DNA from: Kiritimatiellia bacterium
Lineage (GTDB): Bacteria > Verrucomicrobiota > Kiritimatiellia > RFP12 > JBMNHG01
Reading direction: 5' to 3'
DNA: 33,165 nucleotides
NCBI GenBank assembly: GCA_050950285.1
Contig: JBMNHG010000007.1
Coordinates: 1 to 33,165 of the forward strand
Shown: piece after piece, positions 18,001-21,000 of the stretch
Layout: each line of letters opens with the position of its first letter
Numbering within the stretch: position 1 is the stretch's first letter
Position numbers: made by a program

Positions 18001-21000
18001 AGGCCTCGGCATGGACGGCGTCCGGGTGGCCCGGAAGGCGTCCGGCAAGCCAGAAATAGGCGGCCATGGCCAGGTTGATGGCGGCGGCGGAGAGGATGAC
18101 CGCGCGCGTCGCCTTCGTGCCCGTGGCGCGATGGACCATGTCGCGCAGGGTGAAGGTAAAGGGGTAGATGAAGGCCCCGAGGTCGACCGCGAGGCCGAAG
18201 ACGGAGCCGATTTTCAGGCTCGCGACGTCCGCGATCAGCTGTGCACCGACGTACGCGGCGACCAACACCAGCGGCAGGGCCGGAATGGCATCCCCATCGC
18301 GATCCATGGTCCAGGCGGGGCGGGCGGGGTTACTTCGCCTCGAGCATCGCCTCGATGTCCGCGATGACCTTCTCGGGCCTGGCGGTGCGCGAGGCGCCGA
18401 ACCGGCCGAGCACGGTCTTCCCGTCGGCGGCGAGAACGATGTAGGTGGGGTAGCCTTCGACATCGTACTGCTTCTGGAGCTTCCGGTTGCGGACCACATA
18501 CGGCATGGGGACGCGCGTCTTGTCCCGCGGGAAGTCGATGAAGACCTGCACCACGTGCTCCTTCGCCCATGCGCCCCAGGTTTCGGTGGTGAAGACCTTC
18601 TCCTCCATGAGGACGCACCAGGGGCACCAGTCGCTCCCGGTGAAGTTGAGGAGGATGGGGAGATCCTTCTCGGCGGCCAGCGCGAGCGCGGCGTCGTAGT
18701 CTTGCGTCCAGGCGCCGACCTCCGCGCCCATGGCGGCGGCGGGGCTTTTGCCCGCTTTTTGGGCCGCCTTGTTGGCGCGGGCGAGGGGAATCATGAACGA
18801 CAGGCCCGCGACAAGCGCGAGCGCGATCAACGTCCGTTTGCCCATGGTGTTTTCGCTTCCTTTCCTCATTCGGGTTGTGTCTCCGGGTTGTGTTCCAAAG
18901 GCCGTGGCGCAGGGGGCGCGGTCATTCCCACTCGATCGTGGCGGGGGGCTTCGGGGTGATGTCCCAGACAACGCGGTTCACGCCGTCGACGGTGGAGGCG
19001 ATTTTCCCGGCCACCCTGGCCATGAACCGGAAGGGGAGTTCCACGACGCCGGCCTTTACGAACTGGGAGGTCGAGACCGCGCGGAGGGCGATCACGTACC
19101 CGAAGGTGCGGGCGTTGTTCTTCACGCCCACGGACTTCACGTTCGTCATCACCGCGAAAAACTGCTGGGCCTTGCGATCGAGCCTGGCCTTGGCCATGGC
19201 GTCGCGGAAGATGAAGTCGGCCTGGCGAAGGATGTCGAGCTTCTCCTTCGTGAGTTCGCCCAGGCAGCGCACCGCAAGCCCCGGGCCCGGGAAGGGCTGC
19301 CGCATGACCATCGCTCCAGGGATGCCGAGGGCCTTGCCGACCTTGCGGACTTCGTCCTTGTAGAGGTACTTCACGGGCTCCACGAGGCCTTCGAAGCCGA
19401 GGTCCCCGGGGAGGCCGCCCACGTTGTGGTGGGCCTTCACGGCCTTGTGCCCGCCGCCGCCGGACTCGACGATGTCGGAGAAGATGGTGCCCTGCCCGAG
19501 AAATTCGATTTTGCCGAGTTTGGCGGCCTCCTCGCGGAAGACCTCGACGAACTCGCTGCCGATGCACTTGCGCTTGAGCTCGGGATCCGTGATGCCCTTC
19601 ACCTTCGCGAGGAAGCGCTTCTCGGCGTCGACCTGGACCAGCTTGATCCCGAACTGGCCCTGGAAGACCGACTTCACCTCCTTGGCCTCGTCCAGGCGCA
19701 GGAAGCCGTGGTCCACGAAGACACACGCCAGCTGCCGGCCGATCGCCTGGTGGAGGAGGACCGCGCAGACCGCGCTGTCGACGCCTCCGGACATCGCGAG
19801 GAGCACCTTTTTGCTGCCGACGCGCTCGCGGATCGCCGCGATTTCCTCCCGGATGTACTTCTTGGCGTTGAATTCCTTCCCTACGCGGGCGAGACGTTCT
19901 TTCTCAAGCTGGGTCATCGGCGAAAGCCTTTCGTCACAGGGCTGGCTGCAACGATACCAAGGGTTGCGGGCGGGGAACAAGTACGAAGTTGCCGCCGACG
20001 GAAAAAGCCGTGAACCCTCTTGTTTCGGGATCACGGCTTTACAAAAAGGGGATGGTGGCAAGGAAGGGAATCGAACCCCCGACACGGGGATTTTCAGTCC
20101 CCTGCTCTACCAACTGAGCTACCTCGCCACAACGGTGTGAAGCGGGATGGATGATAGCCCCCCGGCGGGGGAAACGCAACCAGAATCTTCGGCGGCGCGC
20201 CGCGCGGCATGCCGCCGCGTGGCGCGGATTCAACCGTCGGGCCAGTGTCCCCGGCGGTGGCGGGCGAGATCGCGGCCGTAGCGGGCGACCTCCTCGGCGA
20301 CGCGGAGGAAGGTCTCCGGCGCGGGTTCGGGGTAGTCGCCTCCGGGCGCGTCCGGGCGGCCCGCCGTGATTTCCGCGAAGAGGCGCGTGGCCAGCGCCAG
20401 GGGATCCTTCGTCTCGCACCCCCACACGGTCACCACGCGCCAGCCCAGGGCTTCGAGGCGGGCCTTCACGGAGGAGTCGCGGGCGACGTTCCGTTCGAAC
20501 TTTTCCGTCCAGAACGCCGTGCGGCTCTTCGGCGTCGTGGCGACGGGGCAGCCCGGATGGCGGTGCCAGAAGCATCCGTGCACGAAGACCACGCACTTCC
20601 ACTTCCGGAGAACCACGTCGGGGCGTCCCGGCAGATGCTTCGCATGGAGCGAGAAGCGGAAGCCGAGGCGGTGGAGCGTCGAGCGCACCACCTTTTCCGG
20701 CTGGGTGTCGCCGCTGCGGATGCGCGACATCAGCCACGACCGTTGCTCTGGAGGGATCGTATCGGCCATCGGGCGAGCCTGCCTACAGCGCGGCGTCGAA
20801 GGTCTCGACGCCGCTCAAGGGGCGTTTGAAGCAGATGTGCTCCACGTACTGGCGGAAGTTCTCGGCCCCGCGGAGAATCTCGATGTCCATGCGGAGGAAA
20901 TAGATGGGAACGGGCGGGAGATCGATCTTCGGGATGCGCACGGCGTCCTTCTCGGTGGTGATCACCGCGTCGGCGTCGAGGAAGGCGGCGTGGTGGAGGA

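Follow-up and report, generated by a model that had tools for sequence, protein, structure and literature searches.

The window, the whole 33,165-nucleotide stretch of DNA analysed here from a Kiritimatiellia bacterium, carries a guaA gene whose product consists of the synthase part of GMP synthase, and which lies between a tRNA gene and an unrelated neighbour (Table 1). The protein aligns at 51% identity to residues 194-516 of the 516-aa GuaA of a relative and scores 423 against the TIGR00884 cut-off of 338.75, bearing out the claim of an earlier note on this DNA that GuaA here begins at its ATP-pyrophosphatase domain. The 135-bp interval between guaA and tRNA-Phe is too small for a ~190-aa glutaminase domain, and the junction is spanned with zero mismatches by independent contigs, which come from three sequencing studies that were not marked as the source. 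The interval contains a terminator-like hairpin (−22 kcal/mol, z −3.76; 0 of 200 shuffles folded equally well), which was not among the calls of a simple terminator scan, and a sigma-70 scan returned zero promoters. A longer, GTG-started reading frame (18922-20085) was rejected because it overlaps tRNA-Phe and because the orthologues begin at the same ATG, which in them too is preceded by purine-rich motifs.

Table 1. Positions of the guaA locus features in the window, and of the pyrJ gene on contig C3
Feature	Position	Strand	Basis or remark
Thioredoxin-like protein	18330..18845	−	Unrelated downstream neighbour; PF13899, E 3e-13
Glutaminase-free GMP synthase (GuaA), 331 aa	18922..19917	−	ATP-pyrophosphatase and dimerisation domains only; the genome's sole GuaA
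Shine-Dalgarno-like GAAAGG	19927..19932	−	9 nt ahead of the ATG; read from sequence
Terminator-like hairpin followed by U residues	20004..20040	−	3′ of tRNA-Phe; folding versus shuffles
tRNA-Phe(GAA)	20053..20128	−	Upstream of guaA; tRNA call
Vsr mismatch endonuclease	20230..20730	−	Unrelated upstream neighbour; PF03852, E 1.8e-24
PyrJ (DUF1846), 505 aa	C3:751078-752595		Pfam, NCBIfam and PDB matches

The 331-aa protein retains the PP-loop SGGVDS, DxxES (as DIVES), KxHHN (within VKAHHN, where Ala occupies the tolerant T/S position of IK(T/S)HHN), KDEVR, PFPGPG and the C-terminal KPPATIEWE. Apart from KDEVR, which was left out of the count, these motifs are kept in 119/119 and 79/79 members of the short-GuaA family. 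The best 119 matches to the protein are every one 331-332 aa long, and at 79 of 80 loci (L223, whose match begins at a contig edge, was excluded) the short GuaA measures 331 or 335 aa. Domain and homology searches of the genome found neither a class-I glutaminase domain nor a Cys-His-Glu partner subunit for GuaA. A GuaA in two pieces, its glutaminase encoded close by, was also rejected, since no such gene was found at the 79 loci except at L198, where a class-I match lies on the opposite strand. Fifteen genomes of the order hold a 76-83% match to the short GuaA; all of these have a second GuaA match, and on that copy PF00117 is present in at least 7.

In a GuaA tree rooted on only two full-length copies, the 331-aa protein groups with stub forms and lies nearer to bacterial two-domain GuaA than to the archaeal subunit; L081, L084 and L085, tagged 'short' by a crude pattern, also group with the stubs, L084 being cut by a contig end. 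This grouping suggests stepwise erosion. The archaeal two-subunit GMP synthetase offers a parallel in its ATPPase subunit (PDB 6JP9 of M. jannaschii and 2DPL of P. horikoshii), which has the same domains (310 versus 331 aa, E 8e-89) but, unlike the protein described here, has a partner glutaminase. The isolated archaeal subunit makes GMP from NH4Cl, with a Km of 4.1 mM NH4Cl for MjATPPase (bioRxiv 10.1101/2022.02.27.481963); for the canonical E. coli GMPS the value is 103 mM.

Missing glutaminases and lone synthases

Searches of the genome for the class-I glutaminase domain PF00117 gave 0 matches and 0 candidates at E ≤ 10, with both this family and the CTP synthase family PF06418 detected in 14/14 control genomes. 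PF00988 (CarA), PF01174 (PdxT) and PF07685 (CobB/Q) likewise had 0 matches each. In tblastn searches of the genome, the TrpG, TrpD, TrpE and CarA of relatives and one PyrG gave zero matches at E ≤ 1, and HisH, a second PyrG and C26 peptidases gave only matches at E ≥ 0.11. Nothing meaningful appeared in the genome at E ≤ 0.01 for GlmS, GltB, Amt, PII or TrpA/C/E/F, nor anything above the cut-off of the glmS model, in line with the earlier note, which gave GlmS and the large GOGAT subunit as absent. The trp genes are missing, TrpB2 excepted, and motif searches of the genome, which are weak tests, found no AsnA, ArgG or Ndk.

The earlier statement that the genome has no class-I amidotransferase holds for PF00117 but not for PurL (C2:498248-502138), which carries a GATase_5 domain (PF13507, E 8e-99) with the complete triad Cys1129, His1254 and Glu1256 in GVCNG and HPE motifs, an exception to which the earlier note itself alluded. 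Where PF00117 is weak or missing in other genomes, 4/4 complete PurL domains keep the triad as well, so that the shift away from glutamine is partial. Also retained are glutamine synthetase III (GSIII, glnN), a GatA with its amidase signature (Lys, Ser-cisSer; motifs at residues 81, 154 and 178; TIGR00132 547.9 versus 481.1) and an AsnB-like protein with its MCG start. GDH is present, and NagB scores above its cut-off.

The genome's only PurF begins MGGYFG, with Gly in place of the N-terminal catalytic Cys1 as previously noted, and reaches 171.8 against TIGR01134 (cut-off 350). MGG-type PurF occurs in 117/121 genomes of the order (MGG start in 29/29 checked). Precedents for a PurF without the N-terminal cysteine come from Brown et al. 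2011. There the PurF′ of Crenarchaeota, which also lacks this cysteine, was proposed to be ammonia-dependent, and E. coli PurF Cys1 mutants retain ammonia use (PMC3261824). Unlike PurF′, the protein here has Gly for Cys and belongs to a family spread over many anaerobic phyla.

CarB is full length (1073 aa), beside carbamate kinase and without CarA, as had been reported. It is 69-87% identical to the lone CarB of relatives and ~49% to the CarB of their glutamine cluster, two CarB paralogues being found in 4/5 relatives. The adjoining carbamate kinase recalls glutamine-free routes to carbamoyl phosphate, from which the arrangement differs in its full CarB; a conserved CarB-carbamate kinase pair was rejected, as rough gene calls in the 1.5-kb flanks of lone carB showed no such pairing in four relatives.

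HisF residues are numbered here as in T. maritima, and Gln123- and Glu167-type positions are taken to face HisH or to gate the channel. The orphan HisF (254 against TIGR00735, cut-off 294.55) keeps both catalytic Asp residues, as do 80/80 homologues, and residues equivalent to Gln123 and Glu167 occur in 0/80 of the family. No HisH-like match was found in the flanks of orphan HisF loci, nor any HisH in the genome below the E ≥ 0.11 matches, in agreement with the earlier reading. Loss of Lys99 was rejected as a family trait, since Lys stands in 73/80 and Thr only in this genome; the congener has no orphan HisF. NadE has no CN_hydrolase match, shows FPA instead of FPE and has lost the Glu-Lys-Cys nitrilase motifs (FPE and CED are kept in NadE of G022 and G048); it is apparently glutaminase-dead, which would widen the ammonia-direct reading. 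PdxS also stands without PdxT, as claimed, but this is nothing special to this genome: PdxT was not found over its cut-off in 5/5 genomes tested, PdxS being checked in this genome only.

These glutaminase-free paralogues might instead be remnants, or enzymes with different substrates, in an organism that salvages purines, histidine and NAD precursors. Such a reading would fit the loss of other pathways such as that of the trp genes, and the QFVKA of the short-GuaA family where other GuaA proteins show D(F/G)(M/I)xA. We nevertheless consider it unlikely, since catalytic motifs are invariant over families of 80-119 members, the variants are the only copies, and GuaB, PurD, PurM, PurL, HisG, HisA, NadA, PyrF and PyrH (some recognised by motif only) are kept.

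PyrJ and the source of CTP

The earlier note found no CTP synthase and left the organism as either a cytidine auxotroph or the owner of an undescribed enzyme. PF06418 indeed gave 0 matches out of 6 candidates in the genome, but a full-length PyrJ, a described enzyme, is encoded, and the dilemma falls away. In one ~500-aa protein it joins an N-terminal, P-loop-like DUF1846 domain (PF08903, residues 4-336, E 1.5e-152) to a C-terminal DUF1846_C domain (PF20921, residues 341-502, E 2e-50), and it scores 705.6 bits against the NF010184 equivalog (cut-off 631). It matches PDB 7F00 over residues 5-503 of 505 (E 8e-159) and 3BH1 at E 1e-142; 7F00 is a UPF0371 protein labelled SPRM200_0309, which we take to be an orthologue of Spd_0310. 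PyrJ is present in 113/121 genomes of the order. Among 41 that lack pyrG it occurs in 38, the 3 without both being 73-78% complete, and it occurs in 23/23 of the pyrG-less genomes of good quality.

PyrJ is a CTP synthase that uses ammonia only, not glutamine, as shown for Spd_0310 only, and in ~31% of pyrJ genomes it substitutes for pyrG, as here (Zik et al. 2024, bioRxiv 10.1101/2024.09.24.614635). In contrast to the mostly Firmicutes and Actinobacteria distribution given there, it is near-universal in this Kiritimatiellia order, where its gene sometimes directly adjoins that of MGG-PurF (G062 and G023) or stub GuaA (G036). By homology to the pneumococcal enzyme, PyrJ would account for the 'missing' CTP synthase.

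Supply of CTP by cytidine auxotrophy or salvage, or by an undescribed synthase, now appears very improbable. The genome does hold Upp and Cmk motifs and a Udk-like kinase, and uptake through these salvage genes could meet part of the need. The Udk-like protein (PF00485, E 2e-6), however, reaches only 52-61 bits against udk cut-offs of 180-220, and was set aside as a hidden CTP synthase once PyrJ had been found, whereas the two-domain PyrJ tracks pyrG loss.

Two amidating-enzyme sets across the order

In relatives, carA, pyrG, Cys-type purF and glnN lie in one cluster, often with gltB or amtB; among 10 cluster regions, chosen from earlier matches and not at random, carA and pyrG lay within ~15 kb in 9 and glnN belonged to the cluster in 7. 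Across 121 genomes of the order, 76 have both pyrG and carA, 37 have neither and 8 are discordant (113/121 agree), although relatives are not independent samples and such contingency counts overstate significance. Genomes without both make up 22/78 of those of good quality, and amt is present in 2/41 pyrG-less genomes. The 331-aa or stub GuaA, MGG-start PurF, lone CarB, PyrJ and orphan HisF are widespread in the order, often alongside the glutamine cluster. Nor is the genome unique, as had been supposed: a strong PF00117 match is absent in 23/121 genomes, and one from another family (G114, 95% complete) has the same profile. Many relatives have undergone a like loss.

This clustering undoes the earlier argument that five dispersed loci would have to be missed, since one gap could conceal several genes. 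The assembly is in 12 contigs, a number of which break off at mobile elements or repeats, and no calls were made in it for tRNA-Arg(ACG) or a third CAT tRNA, as already reported, so that some DNA may be absent (the 431 calls of a relaxed Arg-ACG scan were for the most part noise). Nonetheless we give very little credence to the glutamine cluster and hisH sitting in unassembled DNA. Here glnN is mid-contig amid unrelated genes. Also mid-contig are glmM, without the glmS that is its direct neighbour in G006 and G048, and the counterpart of the gene upstream of hisH-hisF in the congener, without those two genes; the glmM and hisH-hisF observations are supportive only, as gene order is much shuffled. 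A replacement is present for each missing step, orphan HisF included, and the pairwise loss of pyrG and carA in good-quality relatives also speaks against a gap. The absences of glutamine-dependent enzymes are genuine.

In Prevotella ruminicola 23, amtB, glnK, glnN and gltBD lie in clusters that respond to ammonium, as does pyrG; unlike here, its pyrG lies outside the cluster and both routes are kept, and loss of the module is not described in the available text of PMC5552732. Gene content and these Prevotella data, whose stated direction is inconsistent in that text, would tie the cluster to nitrogen limitation. Literature searches, largely outside subscription papers, found nothing on an ammonia-only bacterial GMP synthase, and neither these nor searches on such a cluster or on HisF without HisH turned up an account of a two-set layout; what is new here is the order-wide layout with two amidating sets.

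Ammonia as the probable nitrogen donor

We are fairly confident that the genome has lost the glutamine set while retaining glnN, and lives on the glutaminase-free set together with GDH, NagB and the glutaminase-dead NadE. Members of the order commonly have two sets: a glutamine set in which carA, carB, pyrG, Cys-type purF and glnN form a cluster, often with gltB or amtB-glnK, and with full GuaA and HisH-HisF elsewhere; and a glutaminase-free set of PyrJ, MGG-start PurF, the lone CarB paralogue and stub or 331-aa GuaA, with orphan HisF in some genomes. PyrJ would aminate UTP using ATP and ammonia, as its pneumococcal orthologue does, and the 331-aa GuaA would adenylate XMP and accept external ammonia, as the isolated M. 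jannaschii subunit does. For these two, ammonia use is taken from the literature; it probably extends to the remaining lone synthases, which would use inward-diffusing ammonia for PRA, carbamoyl phosphate, imidazole-glycerol phosphate, PLP and NAD. GDH would supply glutamate, and NagB acting in reverse would probably make GlcN-6-P. GSIII would still supply glutamine to GlnRS and PurL, and probably to GatCAB, which is needed because the genome is without AsnRS. The ammonia-direct reading of the earlier note thus fits GMP, carbamoyl phosphate, histidine and phosphoribosylamine, and NadE extends it, but the triad amidotransferases are not wholly dismantled, given the PurL triad and the retained GatA, AsnB-like protein and GSIII.

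It is improbable that the lone synthases instead take ammonia from PurL, GatA, the AsnB-like protein or an unrecognised shared glutaminase, leaving the cell glutamine-driven. The genome does retain GSIII and three intact glutamine-splitting sites, and a very divergent glutaminase could escape a home-made class-I profile of 12 sequences that saw PurL only at E 0.14. Against this, the orphan HisF family has lost HisH-facing or channel-gating positions, and the short-GuaA loci hold no glutaminase gene, one opposite-strand ORF aside. PyrJ, moreover, is unable to use glutamine (Zik et al., bioRxiv 10.1101/2024.09.24.614635).

Beyond loss of the glutamine set, we lean slightly towards a broader view of this order of gut and digester bacteria, one that inverts the usual hierarchy: the glutaminase-free set, NadE with its dead nitrilase included, is a coherent housekeeping route and the glutamine enzymes are an accessory nitrogen-starvation module, shed as a block in about one-third of genomes. 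This genome would then be the end state, with nearly all amide nitrogen from ammonia and lone synthases retuned, for example at the HisF channel gate, for neutral-pH ammonium. The sequencing runs that contain this DNA carry the labels bioreactor, digester, landfill, biogas or wastewater, with no RNA run among those listed. The absence of Amt and PII is consistent with a setting in which ammonia is always high.

Metabolic models that seek only PyrG, CarA, HisH and full GuaA would call such genomes auxotrophic despite their replacements. PyrJ gains a further lineage, one in which nearly every genome has it. The 331-aa GuaA, orphan HisF, MGG-PurF and lone CarB are natural enzymes for studying amidotransferases without a glutaminase; as the only copies they make this directly testable, with a bearing on how ammonia is channelled and on the view that the ammonia-dependent forms are the older ones. 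Genomes that have lost Amt, PII, GOGAT and the glutamine module would carry, in that loss, a genomic marker of habitats always rich in ammonia, digesters and the rumen among them.

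Absent glutaminases and the source of CTP

Profile searches of the G000 assembly (4,045,209 bases in 12 contigs, of which the window is contig C7) gave no match to PF00117 or PF06418, each found in 14 of 14 control genomes, and in this the earlier note is upheld. The TrpG, TrpE, TrpD, CarA, PyrG, HisH and C26 peptidases of relatives reached a best E of 0.11 by tblastn against G000, and searches for GlmS, GltB, Amt, PII and TrpA/C/F found none there. Since a TrpB2-type enzyme stands alone and TrpA, C, D, E, F and G were not found, the organism is probably dependent on tryptophan or indole. 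Its tRNA calls lack tRNA-Arg(ACG) and include just two CAT tRNAs.

The note's broader readings, no class-I glutaminase and no CTP synthase, do not hold. PurL retains a PF13507 glutaminase; where genomes match PF00117 weakly or not at all, four of four complete PurL domains likewise keep its motifs (a fifth domain, cut by a contig end, is outside this count). GatA is over the cut-off with intact motifs, and is needed because no AsnRS was found in G000, whereas its sole congener, G006, has one; Asn-tRNA must therefore be supplied via GatCAB. GSIII and an AsnB-like protein with the N-terminus MCG are also encoded.

According to Zik et al. (bioRxiv 10.1101/2024.09.24.614635), the pneumococcal DUF1846 protein Spd_0310, renamed PyrJ, converts UTP to CTP with ammonia only, and pyrG is missing from ∼31% of pyrJ genomes; a DUF1846 gene is listed as essential in a C. 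difficile study (PMC12157513). G000 encodes a 505-aa PyrJ that scores over the NF010184 cut-off and matches PDB 7F00 over nearly its full length (E 8e-159). Neither cytidine auxotrophy nor an undescribed enzyme need be invoked, as a described enzyme is present which, judged by homology, would be the CTP synthase of G000. Among the 121 genomes of the order (RFP12 of the Kiritimatiellia, as labelled in the earlier note and in records of close homologues), PF08903 was found in 113 and PF06418 in 80. PyrJ is encoded by 38 of the 41 pyrG-less genomes, the remaining three being 73-78% complete, and by 23 of 23 without pyrG among the 78 of good quality. In eight genomes (G005, G068, G082, G085, G088, G097, G115 and G118), all of family f6 and all retaining pyrG, the PF08903 match lies in a reading frame of just 335-394 aa, the C-terminal domain of which may have been split off or lost.

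Features of the window and of the G000 genome
Feature	Position	Strand	Remarks
Serine-recombinase module	window 3217-5706		near left end
Hybrid-cluster (prismane) protein and adjoining flavodiiron-like protein	window 7887-10493
GuaA, 331 aa	window 18922-19917	-	GMP_synt_C and PP-loop domains only
tRNA-Phe			ends 135 bp upstream of GuaA; terminator-like hairpin then follows
PurH N-terminal part, 229 aa	window 27973-28662	-	model positions 3-196 of 510
Group II intron reverse transcriptase	window 30463-31620		near right end
PurL	C2:498248-502138		PF13507 E 8e-99; Cys1129, His1254, Glu1256
PurH-like protein, 434 aa	C2:1077429-1078733		separate; apparent, by motif only
TrpB2-type enzyme	C3:543674-545059
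PyrJ, 505 aa	C3:751078-752595		PF08903 E 1.5e-152; PF20921 E 2e-50
Carbamate kinase	C4:30251-35711 (region)		between divergent polyamine ABC transporter and carB
NadE	C8:336311-337978		adjoins nadA; nitrilase domain decayed

The glutamine module of relatives

Ten regions of relatives were chosen for inspection on the basis of previous hits. In nine of them carA is within ∼15 kb of pyrG, and their partners across the ten include Cys-type purF (8), glnN (7), gltB (4) and amtB-glnK (2); what G000 lost is largely one module. Of the 121 genomes, 76 have pyrG together with carA, 37 have neither and 8 are discordant, and amt occurs in 52 of 80 genomes with pyrG versus 2 of 41 without, counts that show a pattern rather than significance because the genomes are kin. 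PF00117 matches are weak or absent in 23 of the 121; in three genomes with a weak match that were examined it was HisH-like, the sequence being read for G006. This congener retains HisH and GlmS, so the loss is further advanced in G000. G114, a 95% complete genome of another family, likewise lacks PF00117, CarA, PyrG and Amt, and has PyrJ, MGG-type PurF, orphan HisF and a GuaA with a collapsed glutaminase stub. In G000 each of glnN, glmM and the gene found just ahead of hisH-hisF in the congener sits in the interior of a contig, its partners missing; this argues against an assembly gap, although gene order is much rearranged.

The glutaminase-free set

The set kept by G000 is a second one, widespread in the order. 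Its 331-aa GuaA, which lacks the glutaminase half, aligns at 51% with the full-length GuaA of a relative (residues 194-516). The junction with the upstream tRNA-Phe is bridged, free of differences, by contigs of three studies, none of them flagged as the source. The best 119 homologues are all 331-332 aa. Of 80 short-GuaA loci fetched, 79 encode a protein of 331 or 335 aa and 77 have an ATG start; no same-strand glutaminase was seen in the flanks of 79, one locus at a contig edge being left out. A second GuaA match was present in 15 of 15 order genomes with a 76-83% hit, with PF00117 on this copy in at least seven. Stub forms of ∼420 aa occur in G006 and others. In the GuaA tree, stub and short forms fall on the same side of a 100/98 branch, opposite two full-length copies. 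The 331-aa forms make up a clade (100/100) whose G000 member lies among genomes mainly of f6, not next to G006. This suggests stepwise erosion of the glutaminase, and possibly sideways replacement. Catalytic motifs named in PMC10526850 are kept in the short family. Its dimerisation domain carries a change particular to the family, QFVKA in place of the D(F/G)(M/I)xA of other GuaA (P0001 residues ∼285-291).

MGG-type PurF occurs in 117 of the 121 genomes (MGG start in 29 of 29 checked) and extends to many anaerobic phyla; it adjoins pyrJ in G062 and G023, and of the four genomes that lack it, three have no PyrJ either. Four of five relatives have two CarB paralogues, and G000 CarB is 69-87% to the lone paralogue versus ∼49% to that of the cluster. 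The carbamate kinase may be catabolic and not a CarA substitute. G000 HisF is 43% identical to canonical relatives and 66-83% to a separate, orphan family found in several phyla and in 24 of the 121 genomes. Within this family (n=80, positions mapped via three canonical relatives) the catalytic aspartates are invariant, and the equivalents of Gln123, Glu167 and Arg5 are kept in 0, 0 and 10 members. The role of Asp98 follows PMC8115485. In flanks of up to 3 kb the class-I profile gave one weak hit, not HisH-sized. The nitrilase domain of NadE, intact in G022 and G048, is decayed in G000, G006 and G044, and in G005 its Cys is gone; the earlier note does not mention this. G005 and G044 still keep the glutamine cluster, and G048, besides its intact long NadE, has a 246-aa NadE within its cluster (locus L096:18709-19449). 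GDH and NagB are encoded in G000.

Ammonia use and other features of the window

Sequencing runs with this DNA carry the labels bioreactor, digester, landfill, biogas or wastewater, habitats that are rich in ammonia. Beyond the observed gene inventory, motifs, co-occurrence and neighbourhoods, we propose that each lone synthase would take free ammonia in vivo and that NagB would give GlcN-6-P. Elsewhere, an isolated synthase subunit makes GMP from NH4Cl with a Km of 4.1 mM (bioRxiv 10.1101/2022.02.27.481963), E. coli PurF without Cys1 uses ammonia, and an ammonia-dependent PurF' in archaea was proposed earlier (both PMC3261824). The lost cluster would serve nitrogen limitation, on the basis of the amtB-glnK linkage and of P. 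ruminicola, where the text places pyrG among ammonium-responsive genes but is inconsistent on direction (PMC5552732).

Of the other features, PurH of G000 is possibly split into two proteins, the hybrid-cluster/flavodiiron-like pair likely serves nitrosative or oxidative stress, and the contig runs out in mobile DNA.

We found neither the arrangement in two sets nor its loss as a block described in the literature, of which our coverage was incomplete. PyrJ was already known and glutaminase-less variants have in-vitro precedent. The variant seen in G000 is real and instructive, though not as strange as it seemed at first.
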